Source: a virus (lineage: Duplodnaviria > Caudoviricetes). Taken from it: a DNA stretch of 64,000 nucleotides. Shown piece by piece: positions 203-8,801 of the stretch. The translations under genes were made by a program, and so were the position numbers. The notes beneath the pieces were generated by a model that saw nothing but the letters and a program-made list of their open reading frames with translations, was not told the origin of the DNA and ran no database searches. The stretch is taken from positions 2,308 through 66,307 of IMG/VR virus record IMGVR_UViG_3300010429_002210. One strand, written 5' to 3'. The number at the start of each line of letters is the position of its first letter. Position 1 is the first letter of the stretch.

Positions 203-844
203 GGGGATGCATCATTCAAAAGTTTTAAGCGAGTACGACGGCGCTTGAAGCGCACCACAGCGGATGGTTTTCGGTGCGCCCGTCGAAATGGCGAACCGCT
301 CCGGATTATTCAAATTCACGCTCATCTAAATCATGATGCAACTTGACGATGCATCATGATTTCCCCTCATTCACCAAACGCCCGGGATGGCGGTGTAGCC
401 CCGCTTTTGTCCTCCTCAGGGACGGGAGCGTTCTGGTCTGACGCGGTGGTTGATGCAATCATGCATCCATGTGACCACCGCGAGTGACCGCTGCCGGGTA
501 CGTTCCGGTGGTGGTCGGCCATGCCGCGAGGCAGAGCATGTCAGACCCCGTCGCGGTCAGCGGTGTAAATGGCCCCTGGGTGGCACGCCAGTGTAAAGGT
601 GCCCGACGTTAAAGCACGTCGGTAAGCAAGAACTCGGGGATGCATCATTCATGATGCATCAGTCGCGCCCGTTTAAGCGGCAAAAAGAAGGACCACGACC
701 GTAGGCGTGGAAACGCAGTAAAAAGCGGAAATGATGCATAGCAGTCGGGATGCATCATTTCCGCTTTTTTGTGAAACAATCCAAGCATCATTCAATGAAT
801 GATGTTTCGATGATTTCACAAAAAATCGAGGAGGATGCATCATG
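203..844. repeat. cluster of GATGCATCAT / ATGCAT palindromic motifs
   Basis: ATGCAT at 207, 349, 461, 640, 654, 734, 750 and 835, mostly within GATGCATCAT or ATGATGCAT; further related copies at 785-801, 3554-3576 and 5461-5477. Confidence 0.85.
720..770 (+). terminator. 20-bp perfect inverted repeat followed by T tract
   Basis: AAAAAGCGGAAATGATGCAT (720-739) pairs with ATGCATCATTTCCGCTTTTT (750-769); 10-nt loop; could be a terminator or an operator. Confidence 0.55.
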
Positions 845-1036
845 AATTACTACGAAGCGATTGTAGCGGCAGCGCAGATGACGGGCAATTCGAGAGCGTC
901 TTACAAAACGGTGGCGCCCATCATTATCAAAGCGGCGCAGGCCATGGGTCAAGCGGTTGACGAACGAGCGCTTAAGACCGCCCACCGCGAGTTTAAAGCG
1001 GTGTTTACGAAGAAGCAGTTCTTCAGCAAGAATTAA
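842..1036 (+). CDS. hypothetical early protein (64 aa)
   Basis: GAGGAGG Shine-Dalgarno, first ORF of the array. Confidence 0.7.
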   Translation: MNYYEAIVAAAQMTGNSRASYKTVAPIIIKAAQAMGQAVDERALKTAHREFKAVFTKKQFFSKN

Positions 1037-1052
1037 AAGGAGGTTGCATATC

Positions 1053-1247
1053 ATGTTCGAGAAAGTACATTACAAAACGGACGAAGAAGGCAATGTTTTT
1101 TGCAATAACGTCGAGGAGTTAGCGGAGTTTGCAACGGACGGCATGTGGAAAAGCGTTGAAGATTTGGAAGCGGACACGGGTGTGGGCCGCGAGGAAATGA
1201 TTGGAAAATGGTTCATTATCGTGCACGGTCGCGTGTATCACGTGTAG
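1053..1247 (+). CDS. hypothetical early protein (64 aa)
   Basis: AAGGAGG SD before ATG 1053. Confidence 0.7.
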   Translation: MFEKVHYKTDEEGNVFCNNVEELAEFATDGMWKSVEDLEADTGVGREEMIGKWFIIVHGRVYHV

Positions 1248-1249
1248 CA

Positions 1250-1315
1250 CTCCAAGCAGAGCACGACCGCGAAAGCGGTCGTAATGCTACGGTCCGGTTG
1301 CAAGTCCGGACGGAG
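1250..1315 (+). ncRNA. structured RNA family A copy 1 (twister-sister-like ribozyme candidate)
   Basis: CTCC/GGAG closing stem; AGCA/TGCT; GAGC-AC...GT-AA internal loop; GAAA-capped hairpin; GTCCGG-TTGCAAGT-CCGGAC hairpin; covaries with copies 2 and 3. Confidence 0.75.
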
Positions 1316-1322
1316 GAAAAAC

Positions 1323-1610
1323 ATGGACGCGAAAAAAGGTACGCGGTTTGGGGTGCCCTGCTCTTTCAGAGAGCCAACGTCAAAACATCGGCCCGCCATT
1401 TGGGAGAACATGCTGGGCACAGTTTTTGCAATGAATGACGAGCGCAAGATTAAGTATTTTGATTACGATTACGAAGCGGCAAAAGCATACTCGGGAGTGA
1501 CCGAGGACGAGCGCGATTGCCGGTTGGCAGCATGGAAAGCGGTCGTGTATGACACCGACGGAAACAAGCCGCGCCGCGGTCAGATGGTTCTGTGGTGCAA
1601 GTGCAAGTAG
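1323..1610 (+). CDS. hypothetical early protein
   Basis: GGAGG SD (3' end of RNA motif A1) before ATG 1323. Confidence 0.7.
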   Translation: MDAKKGTRFGVPCSFREPTSKHRPAIWENMLGTVFAMNDERKIKYFDYDYEAAKAYSGVTEDERDCRLAAWKAVVYDTDGNKPRRGQMVLWCKCK

Positions 1611-1678
1611 CTCAGGCAGAGCACAGCGGCAGTCATTGCCGCTGTAATGCCACAGCCCGGTTGCAAGTCCGGGCGAGC
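1610..1678 (+). ncRNA. structured RNA family A copy 2
   Basis: GCTC/GAGC; GGCA/TGCC; ACAGCGGCA/TGCCGCTGT; GCCCGG-TTGCAAGT-CCGGGC. Confidence 0.75.
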
Positions 1679-1686
1679 AAAAAGAG

Positions 1687-1718
1687 TACTTGACAAGAAT
1701 GGGAAATGATGATAGAAC
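1687..1718 (+). promoter_or_regulatory. sigma70-type early promoter
   Basis: TTGACA (1690-1695), 17-bp spacer, TGn-TAGAAC; 28 bp identical to 9723-9750. Confidence 0.75.
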
Positions 1719-1741
1719 ACAAAATACGAGGAGGAGGCATC

Positions 1742-3037
1742 ATGAACGAGCAGCGCACGTTTGGCATCGAGCTGGAATTCAAAAGCTCTGCCAACCATGC
1801 GGACGTTACGGAGCGCATCAACACGGCGCTCAGGAGCGTCGCATGGGAAACGGGTGAGGACCACCATACCGCTTGGAATTATGGTGGTTATCGGCACGAC
1901 ACCAATCAGAGCAACCGCACGACGTGGACGGTCAAAACGGACGCCAGCATCAATAACGATGGCGTCATGGCGAGCCACCCCCATGGCGTGGAAGTTGTCA
2001 GCCCCATCCTGAAAGGTTCCAAGTCGTTCAAGATTATCAAAGCGGTTTGCGAAGCAATCACACCCATCGCGAAAATCACCAGGACTTGTGGTTTTCACGT
2101 TCACCACGGGGTGCTGGCCGCCGAGCTGCGAGACATCGCAAACGCATGGTGGAAAGTTGAACGTCCCATCATGACGTTGGTTCCCAGCAGCCGTCGTGAC
2201 AACCGTTTCTGTCAGACATGGCAGCGGCAGTTTGGAACTCGGTCGGAAAATTACTTCTTCAATCCGTCGGTGGGTGTCGATCGGATCCGCCACACGTTTC
2301 AGATGACCGGTCGGTACTTGACGCTCAATTTCTGCAGCTTCTGGTCTCATGGGACTGTCGAATTCCGCGTTCACAGCGGCACGAACGACGCCGACAAAGT
2401 CATCAACTGGGTGGTTTACACGCAGTCGGTGATCGAGAAAGCGCATGTCATTGCCAGGTCGGAAGGTCAGCCCGCGAACGAGCAGGACATCGAGTGGGCG
2501 CACGAGATCATGATGCAGAAAGAGTACGAGCGCGCGCCGATGACGACCGAGCAGTACACCGAGATGGTGCGCGAAAATCCGCATCGGAACTACTCCTATC
2601 GGTCGGGTCGCAGGAGCGGTAGTCGTAGCCGCCGGGTTAGATACACGGTGGACGAGCGCCGAGTCCGCGATCTCGTCCTCTCCCTCATGAATGGGAGCAT
2701 GACGACCATGCAGATCAACTTCCGGATCCTGCAGCTCTTTCAGGAAAGCACGGCCCCTGGGATTCCCCGAACGGTCGAGGAAGCGCACCAGTGGCATTCT
2801 CGCGCTCAGCGGCAGCTCCAGCGCGAAGGCTACACGCTCCGGGCAGTCAATCGGCGGTTCTGGATTGCCACCCCGCCCGAAGCCCAGCAGGTGGAAACGG
2901 AAACCCACCGGATGGTGCCCAGGACGAGGGAGCGTGAGGTCTATGGCCATGAGCATGTGGAACTCACGGATGAGTCGGTCGAAATGATTGCTCAGGCAAT
3001 CGAATGGGCCCGCGATCGGCAGCGGCAGTTCCGATAA
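1742..3037 (+). CDS. putative amidoligase (COOH-NH2 ligase, Amidoligase_2-type)
   Basis: RTFGIELEF, VKTDASI, GVEVVSPIL, TCGFHVH, RYLTLN and GTVEFR motifs; GATase and GGCT genes nearby. Confidence 0.85.
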   Translation: MNEQRTFGIELEFKSSANHADVTERINTALRSVAWETGEDHHTAWNYGGYRHDTNQSNRTTWTVKTDASINNDGVMASHPHGVEVVSPILKGSKSFKIIKAVCEAITPIAKITRTCGFHVHHGVLAAELRDIANAWWKVERPIMTLVPSSRRDNRFCQTWQRQFGTRSENYFFNPSVGVDRIRHTFQMTGRYLTLNFCSFWSHGTVEFRVHSGTNDADKVINWVVYTQSVIEKAHVIARSEGQPANEQDIEWAHEIMMQKEYERAPMTTEQYTEMVRENPHRNYSYRSGRRSGSRSRRVRYTVDERRVRDLVLSLMNGSMTTMQINFRILQLFQESTAPGIPRTVEEAHQWHSRAQRQLQREGYTLRAVNRRFWIATPPEAQQVETETHRMVPRTREREVYGHEHVELTDESVEMIAQAIEWARDRQRQFR

Positions 3038-3038
3038 A

Positions 3039-3110
3039 GTGCAAGCAGAGCACACCGACCGTAGGAGCGGTCGGTGTAATGCTACTCCCAGGTTGCAAGT
3101 CCTGGGGCAC
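3039..3110 (+). ncRNA. structured RNA family A copy 3
   Basis: GTGC/GCAC; AGCA/TGCT; ACACCGACC/GGTCGGTGT; CCCAGG-TTGCAAGT-CCTGGG. Confidence 0.75.
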
Positions 3111-3120
3111 GGAGGTGACG

Positions 3121-3333
3121 ATGGCAAGGATACTGGTAGACAAGTACGACGGCCACGTTGAGGCGAAGCTCAAGGAGTTTTGTTTTCGTCATCATGTGAA
3201 AATCGAGGAACGCTACACGACGCAAAGCGGCAACGCGAAGGTCGCGACGAAGCGTGCGAAGGTGTCAAAACTCAACGGGGAAATCATGCGGCTTGTCTAC
3301 GACACGTCGCGCAGGGTTTGGTACAACTCATAA
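3121..3333 (+). CDS. hypothetical early protein
   Basis: GGAGGTG SD before ATG 3121. Confidence 0.65.
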   Translation: MARILVDKYDGHVEAKLKEFCFRHHVKIEERYTTQSGNAKVATKRAKVSKLNGEIMRLVYDTSRRVWYNS

Positions 3334-3349
3334 AAGGAGGTAGTGCATC

Positions 3350-3547
3350 ATGGCAGTCAATACAGCGTACAGTCGGAACCGGGACTGGTCGGTTGGTGCC
3401 ACTGTGAAGGTCGGGTTCCTCACGCTGATCGTCACGGGGTGCAAAGCGGTAAAGGACGGGATGCCTGACATCTACACGCTGAAAAGCGTGGATGGAAGGA
3501 AGCTCTACGAGTTCATTCCCCACAACGGACTGCGACGGATCGGATAA
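3350..3547 (+). CDS. hypothetical early protein
   Basis: AAGGAGG SD. Confidence 0.7.
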   Translation: MAVNTAYSRNRDWSVGATVKVGFLTLIVTGCKAVKDGMPDIYTLKSVDGRKLYEFIPHNGLRRIG

Positions 3548-3607
3548 CCCTGTGGGATGCATCATTCATGCATCCCGGCGCTATACAAGATAAGGGTTGA
3601 AAAGCGC
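3547..3607 (+). ncRNA. structured RNA family B copy 1 (pseudoknot)
   Basis: ACCCT/AGGGT stem, 9-bp hairpin, GCGCT/AGCGC pseudoknot stem. Confidence 0.7.
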
Positions 3608-3632
3608 GAACTTCAAGTAACAGGAGGATGTC

Positions 3633-3809
3633 ATGGCAAAGACGGTTAGAATTCAATTCTTAGAGCCGCGTCGGCCCGGTCGGCTGGTGCGGAAAGCCAG
3701 AATCATTCGGACGCAGAAGCAGGACCAGCGCCTCTGGGTTGAAGAGGTCCAGGAGATCCGTGGGCGCAAGTTCAAGATCATGGTCCCCAATCCCCAGCTC
3801 GGAGTGTAA
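3633..3809 (+). CDS. hypothetical protein (58 aa, MAKTVRIQF...)
   Basis: read manually; CAGGAGG SD; below ORF-track length cut-off. Confidence 0.6.
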   Translation: MAKTVRIQFLEPRRPGRLVRKARIIRTQKQDQRLWVEEVQEIRGRKFKIMVPNPQLGV

Positions 3810-3823
3810 AGGAGGAGAGTGTC

Positions 3824-4894
3824 ATGTGCGGCATCTATGGGTACGTTGGCAAGCCATTCAACAAGGAGAAACTGTGCATGCTCATGAAGAACCTGGCCAT
3901 CGCAACAGAGGTCAGGGGCACTGACAGCACAGGGGTGGTTGCCACCACACGGCGGAAGGCTTACTTCTCCAAAGCCGTGGAGAAAGCGTCCAAGTTCGTC
4001 CAGCACGGTGACTTCGAGAAAGCCATCGTGACGCGTGGTTGCCGGTACTTCCTGGGCCATAACAGGGCGGCATCCTGTGGCGGAGTGACGGTTCCGAACG
4101 CGCACCCGTTCAAGGGTGAAAAGTTCTTCCTGGTGCACAACGGTACGTCGCGTGTTGCGAATCAGATGTGCGACGAGCGTGGTCTGGTCCGCGAGGGTCA
4201 GACAGACAGCGAAGCCATCCTGAAACTGATCGAGGCCGACGGGCTGAAAAGCAGTGAAGATCTGCTCAACAAGCTCACGGATTTTAGCATCGTTCTGCTC
4301 GACTACAAGAAGCGGAACGGCGCGCTGTATTTCTTCCGAAACCACATGAAACCCATGTACGTGGCGGATCTCAGGAAGTGGTTTGGTGTCAGGATTTTCG
4401 CGAGCACCAAGGAGATCCTGGAGCGTGCCATCCTCCGCACCTTCAACCTCAAGGTGGAGCAGGTTCAGGAAATTCTGTCCACCGGATGGAACACTCGGCC
4501 GGGTTGCATCTACCGAGTGACCGCGAAAGACGGCGAGTTCCAGAACATCGGAAAGTTCCTGTGGGAGGAGACGGAGGCACACCTGAGGCAAAGGTTGGCC
4601 GCTCAGCAGGAACGCGATGAAGAGCGCCAGCAGCGCCGCTCAGACCGCGCTGTCATGAAAGAGACAAAGCGCATCCTGACCAGGGACAGTCAGGGAGCAC
4701 TGCCGTACAGGACAGAGCAGAAACCGTCGGGGATTGAAGTTGGGACGGTTAAGACGACCGATTCCAAAATCGACGCATGGCGGAAGTGGGAGAAGGAGCA
4801 CCTGGGAAACTGGATGGAGGACGACCTCTACATCCATCGGGTGGCCAGCAGGGACTACATGCGCTCCATGAAGAAAAGGGGGAAGCTCCACTAA
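3824..4894 (+). CDS. class II glutamine amidotransferase (Ntn hydrolase)
   Basis: N-terminal MCGIYG, RGTDSTG, GHNRAAS, NAHPF, HNGT, TDSE. Confidence 0.9.
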   Translation: MCGIYGYVGKPFNKEKLCMLMKNLAIATEVRGTDSTGVVATTRRKAYFSKAVEKASKFVQHGDFEKAIVTRGCRYFLGHNRAASCGGVTVPNAHPFKGEKFFLVHNGTSRVANQMCDERGLVREGQTDSEAILKLIEADGLKSSEDLLNKLTDFSIVLLDYKKRNGALYFFRNHMKPMYVADLRKWFGVRIFASTKEILERAILRTFNLKVEQVQEILSTGWNTRPGCIYRVTAKDGEFQNIGKFLWEETEAHLRQRLAAQQERDEERQQRRSDRAVMKETKRILTRDSQGALPYRTEQKPSGIEVGTVKTTDSKIDAWRKWEKEHLGNWMEDDLYIHRVASRDYMRSMKKRGKLH

Positions 4895-5025
4895 TGCGAA
4901 AAGACATCAAAGAAGTGCTCGACTTTGTCGGGTACGTTGTGGGTGGCATCCTGTTCTTTGTCGGGCTTGTAATGCTGCTCGGGTTCGGTGACATAGTGCT
5001 GGAATTGGTTCGTAATGCATTCTAA
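4894..5025 (+). CDS. small membrane protein
   Basis: overlapping TAATG junction; hydrophobic helix. Confidence 0.55.
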   Translation: MRKDIKEVLDFVGYVVGGILFFVGLVMLLGFGDIVLELVRNAF

Positions 5026-5037
5026 AGGAGGAGAACT

Positions 5038-5439
5038 ATGGGAATGGTATTCGTGTATGGGTCGTTGAAAACTGGTGGTTACAATAGCTGTCTGATGGTG
5101 GGTTCCGAGTTCATCGGTCGAGCCCACATGTGCAGGAAGTACTTGATGGTGAGCCTGGGACCGTTTCCGGGTCTGCTCTACAATCACGACGCGAAAGTGC
5201 CCGCAAGCGGTGAGGTCTACAAGGTCTCCAAAAAGACCTTGAAGCGGTTGGATCAGCTCGAGGGCCACCCCAACTTCTACCGCAGGAAGCGCGTCTGGGT
5301 CAACCTGGGTGGTGGGAAGAAAGTTCGCTGCTGGGTGTACTTTTACAACCCGCCGATCCACCCCCAAACGGTGAAGGACAGGGCAGTTGCCAGCGGGCAC
5401 TGGCCTTGCACACCAGTTCGTGCAGCCTCTACCATGTAG
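5038..5439 (+). CDS. gamma-glutamylcyclotransferase (GGCT/AIG2-like)
   Basis: VFVYGSLK, GEVY and LDQLEGHPNFYRR motifs. Confidence 0.9.
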   Translation: MGMVFVYGSLKTGGYNSCLMVGSEFIGRAHMCRKYLMVSLGPFPGLLYNHDAKVPASGEVYKVSKKTLKRLDQLEGHPNFYRRKRVWVNLGGGKKVRCWVYFYNPPIHPQTVKDRAVASGHWPCTPVRAASTM

Positions 5440-5445
5440 ATGTAG

Positions 5446-5523
5446 CGTTCTGCGGGTATGGCATCATTCAATGAATGGTGCCATGCACTGGAGCATGTTA
5501 CAAAAAGGAACGGAGGTGATCCA
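5446..5523 (+). ncRNA. structured RNA family B divergent copy
   Basis: CGTTCT/(A)GGAACG stem, GCG, long hairpin, TGGAGCAT/GTGATCCA (one mismatch), ACAAAAAGG linker; same order of elements as the other B copies. Confidence 0.45.
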
Positions 5524-5793
5524 ATGCGACTCACAGTAACGACGGAGCAGGGTCACGTTTTCAGGGGAGACAATGCGAAGCAAATTGTCTACCGCATGAT
5601 GAAGCGAGACTTTATGGTGACAACCAAAACAGACTACATGGCGGAGGTCAGGCAACGCGTCAAGATCATCTACGGATGGGAGATCGGGATTGCCAATCAC
5701 GAGGAGTTCCTCAGATTGCCAATCACGAGGAGTTCCTCAACGATCTGGAAAAGTACGGGCTGATAACTGTTTCAGTAAATGAGGAGGTGAAGT
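5524..5793 (+). pseudogene. hypothetical gene frameshifted by a 26-bp tandem duplication
   Basis: GATTGCCAATCACGAGGAGTTCCTCA repeated at 5688-5713 and 5714-5739; removing one copy restores ...EEFLNDLEKYGLITVSVNEEVK* ending just before the next gene. Confidence 0.6.
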
Positions 5794-5796
5794 GAA

Positions 5797-6243
5797 ATGC
5801 CAGAGACGTTACAACTGTCGCTCTCCGCTCCCAGAGCGGGGGAAGAGGTGGTCGCGGCCGTTTACGAACTGACGGGCCAGCGTCCGAAGTCCAAGAAAGA
5901 GAAGTACATCTTCGTCCACGCGACAGAAGATCCCGGCGTGGTGGTGGGGTGCGTGGCCGTGAAGAAGCTCAACTGGGCCATGTCGGAAATCCGTCACTTG
6001 TACGTCCAGGAAGCGTACCGAACTCGGGGCATTGGCAGGAAACTCATCCAAGAGGCACTTGCCCATGTCCAGACCCCGATGGTGTGCTCCACCGTTGACC
6101 TTCGGAACCAGGCAAGCCTCAAGGCGTTCTACGCACATATGTTCATTCCGAGGGAACTATTCCCGAACTACGCCACGGGGCATACTGTCCAACTCCTCAT
6201 CAAAGTCATGCCACCGCCCCGTCGGGCGTCCATGCTCCAGTAA
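5797..6243 (+). CDS. GNAT family acetyltransferase
   Basis: EIRHLYVQEAYRTRGIGRKLI acetyl-CoA binding motif A. Confidence 0.85.
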   Translation: MPETLQLSLSAPRAGEEVVAAVYELTGQRPKSKKEKYIFVHATEDPGVVVGCVAVKKLNWAMSEIRHLYVQEAYRTRGIGRKLIQEALAHVQTPMVCSTVDLRNQASLKAFYAHMFIPRELFPNYATGHTVQLLIKVMPPPRRASMLQ

Positions 6244-6556: not shown

Positions 6557-6613
6557 ACCCTGTGGGGACGCGAAAGCGTCCCCGGCATCTAAAACAAAAG
6601 GGTGGAAGGATGC
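6557..6613 (+). ncRNA. structured RNA family B copy 2
   Basis: ACCCT/AGGGT; GGGGACGC-GAAA-GCGTCCCC; compensatory pseudoknot GCATCT/GGATGC. Confidence 0.7.
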
Positions 6614-8599: not shown

Positions 8600-8743
8600 A
8601 TGAAGAAAAAGATCGTAGCGTTCCGAGGAATCACCATGTACGAGATGCAGATCGGCCGAGTCATCATCCAACTTGTCCGTTGGATGTATTGGAACACGAG
8701 GAACTGGCCGTTCTTGCGTATCCGAACGACACCTTACAGATGA
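8600..8743 (+). CDS. hypothetical protein (47 aa)
   Basis: read manually; its stop codon overlaps RNA motif B3. Confidence 0.5.
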   Translation: MKKKIVAFRGITMYEMQIGRVIIQLVRWMYWNTRNWPFLRIRTTPYR

Positions 8744-8801
8744 CCCTGTGAGTGGCCGAAAAGGCCACTCGGCGCTATACAAGATAAGGGTTGAAAAGCG
8801 C
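8743..8801 (+). ncRNA. structured RNA family B copy 3
   Basis: ACCCT/AGGGT; GAGTGGCC-GAAAA-GGCCACTC; GCGCT/AGCGC; 34 bp identical to 3576-3609. Confidence 0.7.

Follow-up and report, generated by a model that had tools for sequence, protein, structure and literature searches.

Three predicted type-P5 twister ribozymes between early genes of an uncultivated tailed phage

Three short RNA elements, called copies 1, 2 and 3 here, lie between early genes near the left end of the window. The window is the whole stretch of DNA that was analysed, 64,000 nt that correspond to bases 2308-66307 of the virus record IMGVR_UViG_3300010429_002210. Judging from the sequence, the three elements are very probably type-P5 twister self-cleaving ribozymes that probably split the early transcript into single-gene RNAs. 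Membership in the class rests on a covariance model, helices, pseudoknots and conserved letters, and self-cleavage itself is predicted from twister chemistry (PMC5408937). The initial annotation read the same elements as twister-sister ribozymes. It had the kind right, a small self-cleaving-ribozyme motif with covarying stems and fixed loops that is opened at P5, but the family and the cut site were wrong. The elements do not form a new class. They add members to a well-known one, their type of neighbourhood is equally familiar, and they are detectable at the standard Rfam threshold. The twister class itself is attributed to Roth et al. 2014 where PMC5408937 and PMC6765202 cite it.

Family assignment

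In the Rfam scan of the window RF02684 (Type-P5 twister) matches copy 1 at 56.7 bits (E 3.9e-9), copy 2 at 58.2 bits (E 1.6e-9) and copy 3 at 50.0 bits (E 2.1e-7). The gathering score of this family is 37.6 bits. All three copies exceed it by 12-20 bits and span model positions 1-58 of 58. The default scan with all families gave three above-threshold matches, all of them RF02684, and a permissive scan (E<=5) found no further ribozyme of any class in the window. RF02681 (twister-sister) was run alone on the whole 66,307-bp record, where 4 candidates were scored and there was no match at E<=10. We also built our own covariance model, R1, from 15 sequences. It scores the copies at 85.1, 88.1 and 72.8 bits and re-detects all sites at 51-88 bits. 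There is no fourth copy in the window with R1 at E<=1, and the record holds three copies only.

The fold that had been annotated is all there in the sequence, with its stems, its loops, their order and a start no more than 3 nt from a stop codon. The stop codon ends 2 nt before the closing stem in copy 1 and 1 nt before it in copy 3, and it overlaps the stem by 1 nt in copy 2 (Table 1). P1, P2 and P4, the essential stems of a type-P5 twister, are all Watson-Crick in each copy, as is P5. The P1 hairpin is 7, 8 and 9 bp long in copies 1, 2 and 3, and the UAA and P2 that follow it lead into AC plus one nucleotide. Minimum free energy (MFE) folding of each copy alone gives a three-way junction of P5-P2-P1-P4. 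The energies are -35.1, -40.0 and -40.0 kcal/mol (z -4.82, -5.27 and -5.22), and 0 of 200 shuffles of each copy fold as well as the native sequence. The fold shared by the three copies is far beyond chance.

Each part of this fold has a place in the twister model (PMC5408937). The closing stem is P5, the termini of a type-P5 twister, RGCA/UGCY is P2, and the variable hairpin is P1. GAG plus CA is the L1 strand, which carries the conserved G and the 5' strand of the pseudoknot T1. U^AA is the scissile site, AC is the 5' strand of the second pseudoknot T2, and the 6-bp hairpin is P4. The P4 loop reads U-UGC-AA-GU and contains the T1 partner (UGC) and the T2 partner (GU). Both T1 (GCA/UGC) and T2 (AC/GU) are Watson-Crick complementary in all three copies. 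None of the conserved twister letters is missing: each copy has GCAGAG, the scissile-site U-A-A, UGC and, in L4, U...AAG. GAG, U-A-A and U...AAG are invariant in the three copies and in 15 aligned relatives. Among the strongly conserved L1 and L4 nucleotides of twister are the scissile-site A and the loop G (PMC5408937).

The likeness to RF02684 extends to the order of helices, which is an open P5, P2, L1 with GAG, a closed P1, U^AA, P2, the T2 strand and P4. It also extends to the 8-nt P4 loop (U-NNN-AAG-N), to both pseudoknots being able to form, and to the location near phage genes. The Rfam consensus is GAGgG ... UCcCAAGCC with GC after P2, its T1 is GGG/CCC and its T2 is GC/GC, whereas the window has GCA/UGC and AC/GU and no P3. 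The window keeps both pseudoknots by changes on both strands. In none of the class-defining features do the copies differ, and their T1 and T2 are normal variants that make no new sub-type.

The twister-sister reading takes the copies as twister-sister ribozymes opened at P5 and cut at GAGC^AC. There is a superficial likeness in the multi-stem junction, the hairpin loop with CAAG and the G-U-A-A strand, and reviews describe a vague similarity of sequence and structure between twister and twister-sister (PMC5408937). Both are small self-cleaving ribozymes from the same type of bacterial and phage neighbourhoods. However, twister-sister has another cleavage site, a C^A in the internal loop that faces the G-Y-A-A strand, and other tertiary contacts, and it is without the T1/T2 double pseudoknot of the window copies. 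The loops in the window are Watson-Crick complementary as T1 and T2, and they covary across phages. RF02684 accounts for every position, and the one extra nucleotide that had been proposed in each of L1 and L4 is not needed. The RF02681 null and the full-length RF02684 matches refute twister-sister as the family, and we consider this reading extremely unlikely. The scissile bond in twister is the U^A adjoining P1 (PMC5408937), so the expected cut is GU^AAUGC and not GAGC^AC. The twister model would put it at GU^AA in all three copies. The lesson for annotation is that the family call and the cut site should be taken from a covariance model and not from a likeness of motifs.

Table 1. Positions of the ribozyme copies, their parts and the features around them (window coordinates)
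Feature	Position	Strand	Remarks
Twister copy 1 (type P5)	1250-1315	+	between stop codon and next gene
Copy 1 P5	1250-1253 / 1312-1315		CUCC/GGAG; then A1254
Copy 1 P2	1255-1258 / 1285-1288		AGCA/UGCU
Copy 1 L1	1259-1263		GAGCA; catalytic-loop GAG 1259-1261
Copy 1 P1	1264-1270 / 1275-1281		then UAA 1282-1284
Copy 1 P4	1292-1297 / 1306-1311		loop UUGCAAGU 1298-1305
Copy 1 T1	1261-1263 / 1299-1301		G1261-C1301, C1262-G1300, A1263-U1299
Copy 1 T2	1289-1290 / 1304-1305		AC strand 1289-1290; A1289-U1305, C1290-G1304
Twister copy 2 (type P5)	1610-1678	+	between stop codon and next gene
Copy 2 P5	1610-1613 / 1675-1678		GCUC/GAGC
Copy 2 P2	1615-1618 / 1648-1651		GGCA/UGCC
Copy 2 P1	1624-1631 / 1637-1644
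Copy 2 T2 strand	1652-1653
Copy 2 P4	1655-1660 / 1669-1674
Twister copy 3 (type P5)	3039-3110	+	between stop codon and next gene
Copy 3 P5	3039-3042 / 3107-3110		GUGC/GCAC
Copy 3 P2	3044-3047 / 3080-3083		AGCA/UGCU
Copy 3 P1	3053-3061 / 3068-3076
Copy 3 T2 strand	3084-3085
Copy 3 P4	3087-3092 / 3101-3106
Predicted cuts (copies 1, 2, 3)	1282/1283, 1645/1646, 3077/3078		U1282^A1283, U1645^A1646, U3077^A3078; from the twister model
64-aa open reading frame (ORF)	842-1036	+	first after the leader
64-aa ORF	1053-1247	+	TAG stop 1245-1247, 2 nt 5' of copy 1
95-aa ORF, unknown family	1323-1610	+	between copies 1 and 2; TAG stop 1608-1610
40-nt element with TTGACA	1687-1726	+	TTGACA 1690-1695; between copy 2 and amidoligase gene; not part of a ribozyme
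Amidoligase_2 gene, 431 aa	1742-3037	+	between copies 2 and 3; TAA stop 3035-3037
70-aa ORF	3121-3333	+	directly after copy 3; Shine-Dalgarno sequence GGAGG 3111-3115

Covariation in relatives

Relatives of the copies were sought in IMG/VR, JGI metagenomes and genomes with a DNA pattern fixed on the conserved letters. Most matches of the first IMG/VR pattern (33 of 37) were one conserved coding sequence without the P1 hairpin, and these were discarded. Once chance matches without this hairpin were dropped there were 13 further sites in 11 other contigs, 10 of them above the Rfam gathering score. Covariation is strong. In an alignment of 17 distinct rows, standard pairs fill 88.2% of cells, compared with about 31% when the partners are slid, and 30-40% over slides of 1-3 columns. 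Changes on both sides of a pair fill 84 cells versus 16-28 in the slid controls. None of 500 shuffles attains the observed score or percent paired. Double changes are found at 6 of 6 pairs of P1 plus its closing pair, at 5 of 6 pairs of P4, and at one compensatory pair of P2. P5 is paired in just 58.8% of cells. This implies that P5 is a feature of the window lineage and a few others.

One relative, locus L043, is syntenic with window 400-1700 at 75% identity. Both of its orthologous ribozymes are nearly intact while the ORFs have diverged. It has a compensatory change in P5 (CUCC/GGAG to CGCC/GGCG), another in P4 (GUCCGG/CCGGAC to GAUCGG/CCGAUC) and a third in P2 (GGCA/UGCC to AGCA/UGCU).

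The first pattern had T1 fixed. A second IMG/VR scan left the letters of T1 and T2 free and gave at least 120 stretches. A filter that looked at P1 (>=4 bp) and P4 (>=3 bp) and at nothing else kept 106 sites in 92 loci, and this count, like the statistics on phage twisters below, holds among the matches listed. T1 can form 3 of 3 pairs in all 106 of these phage type-P5 twisters, in nine combinations. The commonest is GUG/CAC (64 sites), and others are GGG/CCC (15), GGA/UCC (13), GAG/CUC (5) and GCA/UGC (4). T2 is paired in all 106 as well, as GC/GC, AC/GU or CC/GG. The loops that had been called invariant are fixed in the three copies of the window, and they are the strands of T1 and T2, which covary across phage twisters.

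One can imagine a role at the level of DNA, with the copies as conserved cassettes of ~60 bp that serve as recombination points where accessory genes are swapped between phages. The copy 1 core (1255-1312) and its 3' half (1282-1313) do occur with unrelated flanks in wastewater contigs, and the flanked genes vary between phages. However, the compensatory double changes in P1, P2, P4 and P5 and the covarying pseudoknots are the mark of selection on an RNA fold rather than on DNA identity. The copies are also always on the coding strand, just 5' of a start. We consider recombination very improbable as the explanation of these elements, though it could arise as a side effect and does not have to compete with twister ribozymes.

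Placement of phage twisters

The overwhelming majority of phage type-P5 twisters lie after a stop codon and ahead of the next ribosome-binding site (RBS), usually before small accessory genes. Of 105 sites, 77 (73%) have a strict Shine-Dalgarno (SD) sequence and an ATG in the 55 nt that follow, a layout seen in 4.3% of random windows taken from these loci. The ATG is at a median of 28 nt from the P4 loop. There are 64 distinct ORFs downstream of twisters, mostly small (median ~95 aa) and diverse. They include six helix-turn-helix regulators, several DNA methyltransferases, one AcrIC5-like protein, one pentapeptide-repeat protein and FtsK-like proteins. Like ardA with its hammerheads (PMC3088659), these genes are of the accessory, early or counter-defence kind. 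The survey gives a concrete and testable rule for how phages use type-P5 twisters.

Several other phage contigs have arrays too: L091 carries five copies within 2.3 kb, and L126 and L152 carry three apiece. The L091 array (IMGVR_UViG_3300012948_000209, positions 2682-4979) has type-P5 twisters at a spacing of ~540 nt and is denser than the array in the window. After three of its five twisters comes a conserved string that resembles a hairpin, CCGGTCGCATTCCGG. The unrelated phage twisters of L079, L099, L125, L126 and L129 are followed by a common string AAT(C/T)...CGCAGAGGAG before the start codon. This string may be a leader or SD module that is conserved and moves together with the ribozyme.

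There is precedent for this placement. Twister and hammerhead ribozymes have common gene neighbourhoods, and processing of polycistronic transcripts has been proposed (PMC6765202). In prophages several hammerheads flank single genes and cleave polycistronic RNAs of ~2 kb in vitro, and the ardA gene is flanked by three hammerheads (PMC3088659). These prophage clusters (Perreault et al. 2011, PMC3088659) resemble the window in that several ribozymes, spread over ~2 kb, flank individual genes, small or accessory, of a single transcript. They too have been proposed to turn a long phage transcript into single-gene mRNAs. They differ in being another ribozyme class and in that their cleavage was seen in vitro and in E. 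coli, whereas the twisters of the window are known from sequence. No biological role is settled yet for twister or, more broadly, for the self-cleaving ribozymes of bacteria and phages (PMC6765202). The window locus is a clean and compact test case. Three active-looking twisters bracket the 95-aa ORF and the amidoligase gene right where the phage early region begins, which makes the locus well suited to the question of why phages set ribozymes between the genes of early operons.

Proposed mechanism

When the early block is transcribed, each RNA would fold as P5-P2-P1-P4. The P4 loop would then dock on the internal loop through T1 (GCA/UGC) and T2 (AC/GU), and the RNA would cut itself at the U^A beside P1. 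Upstream of the cut the RNA would end in a stable P1 hairpin that bears a 2',3'-cyclic phosphate, and downstream of it a new RNA would start with a 5'-OH, AA-UGCY-AC and the P4 hairpin. The next RBS is 10-30 nt further on for copies 1 and 3, and for copy 2 it is ~85 nt downstream, beyond the TTGACA element and its possible promoter. The 95-aa ORF and the amidoligase gene would be freed as single-gene RNAs, with stability and translation uncoupled from their neighbours. Cleavage in vivo and its effect on expression are suggested by context and by precedent (PMC3088659, PMC6765202).

Several points weigh against self-cleavage or against a need for it. Some computationally predicted ribozymes fail to cleave (PMC8782182). 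L1 is GAGCA with P1 directly after it, while most phage copies have GAGUG-A, and P5 is just 4 bp. Lastly, the TTGACA element between copy 2 and the amidoligase gene suggests that this gene may have its own promoter too. If so, processing is unnecessary for its expression, and copy 2 may mainly fix where the upstream RNA has its 3' end. Contigs of four runs, from digesters or wastewater, have these 40 nt as well, with unrelated sequence on either side. Judged by its letters and distribution, the element may be an early-promoter module shared among related phages. A consensus promoter scan made no call at 1687-1726.

The failure of some predicted ribozymes also leaves room for twister-derived folds that do not cleave and act as structured punctuation between genes. 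Such a fold could be a recognition site for a protein or RNase, a stabiliser of 3' ends, or an insulator of translation, with the SD concealed in P5. The last of these fits copy 1, where the 3' strand of P5 (GGAG 1312-1315) is part of the SD of the 95-aa ORF (GGAGG 1312-1316). Both copies of locus L056 have the same arrangement and pair UCCU with the AGGA of AAAGGAG. Against this, the three paralogues, the orthologues at 75% overall identity and the copies in unrelated contigs retain every conserved core letter and both pseudoknots, which is not expected if stems alone mattered. The overlap of SD and P5 is also lacking in copies 2 and 3. We consider non-cleaving folds quite unlikely and prefer self-cleaving twisters. 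In copy 1 folding could mask the SD until the 5' fragment departs, but since copies 2 and 3 have no such overlap this masking is best seen as a possible local refinement.

It is also unlikely, though worth stating, that the twisters do more than cut and that the early transcript processes itself in a wider sense. Three routes are conceivable. The 5'-OH and 2',3'-cyclic phosphate ends could shield early counter-defence mRNAs from host RNases that depend on the 5' end. The released RNAs could be substrates of a host RtcB-type ligase and become circular mRNAs. Cleavage of copy 1 could free the SD from P5 and turn on translation. Together with a second, pseudoknot-like RNA at 3547, 6557 and 8743 (see below), the whole early transcript would be one self-processing unit. 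RtcB was not found in the phage record, which is 71% complete, and this speaks neither for nor against ligation by a host enzyme.

Gene order and source of the locus

The IMG/VR record is linear, 66,307 bp long. The virus is an uncultivated tailed phage of wastewater and anaerobic digesters, and the ribozymes are encoded on the sense strand of its early genes, which run rightward. Sequencing runs that contain the stretch were made from activated sludge, wastewater and anaerobic digesters, and none of those listed is an RNA run with raw reads. Part of the stretch occurs in four runs with the label 'METAGENOMIC RNA-Seq cDNA', but they are stored as contigs, flagged as probably DNA and uninformative about transcription, RNA ends or cleavage. 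The + strand carries every RBS-equipped ORF of the first 10 kb of the window, and a non-coding leader of ~840 nt precedes the first ORF of the block.

A family search over 957-1247, which holds the second 64-aa ORF, found no match. The 95-aa ORF has an ortholog in L043. The amidoligase gene matches PF12224 (E 3e-28) and phrog_2443 (E 7e-35), and a protein search for close relatives with the amidoligase returned only the same phage again (L005, 100% identity). Rightward of the 70-aa ORF come a class-II glutamine amidotransferase, a gamma-glutamyl cyclotransferase (GGACT) and a GNAT acetyltransferase. Together with Amidoligase_2 they make up a set at the start of the early region (1742-6243) that looks like a small-molecule or peptide-tagging pathway. 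Further right are the replication genes (SNF2 helicases, primase, DnaB-like helicase, PolA, gp32-like and RecA-like), accompanied by a GAT-QueC fusion.

Other elements near the ribozymes

The leader at 400-700 is ~90% identical to L043, while the whole loci are 75% identical, which means the leader is better conserved than the adjoining ORFs. It holds a twister-like string at ~527-600 (GGCAGAGCAUG...GUGUAAAUGG), whose L043 counterpart at 125-201 scores 13 bits with R1. Both were rejected as twisters, as they have no P1, P2 or T1 complementarity. There are palindromes of the ATGATGCATCAT type and a long hairpin in window 720-770 and 203-844. The permissive Rfam scan gave a MIR1023-like match at 725-863 with 33.8 bits, below the gathering score of 90, and this is most likely hairpin shape only. 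The remaining extras of that scan are two chance matches.

A second RNA is repeated between genes on the + strand at 3547-3607, 6557-6613 and 8743-8801, with a divergent copy at 5446-5523. It has no Rfam match at E<=5, and it was seen beside twisters in none of 190 other loci. The element consists, in this order, of ACCCUGU, a variable hairpin, a strand Y, an A-rich linker, AGGGU, purines and a strand Y'. Y and Y' are GCGC/GCGC in one form and GCAUC/GAUGC in another, which is the layout of an H-type pseudoknot, and an SD follows each copy. The pattern ACCCTGT-N25-50-AGGGT occurs 3 times where 0.12 occurrences are expected.

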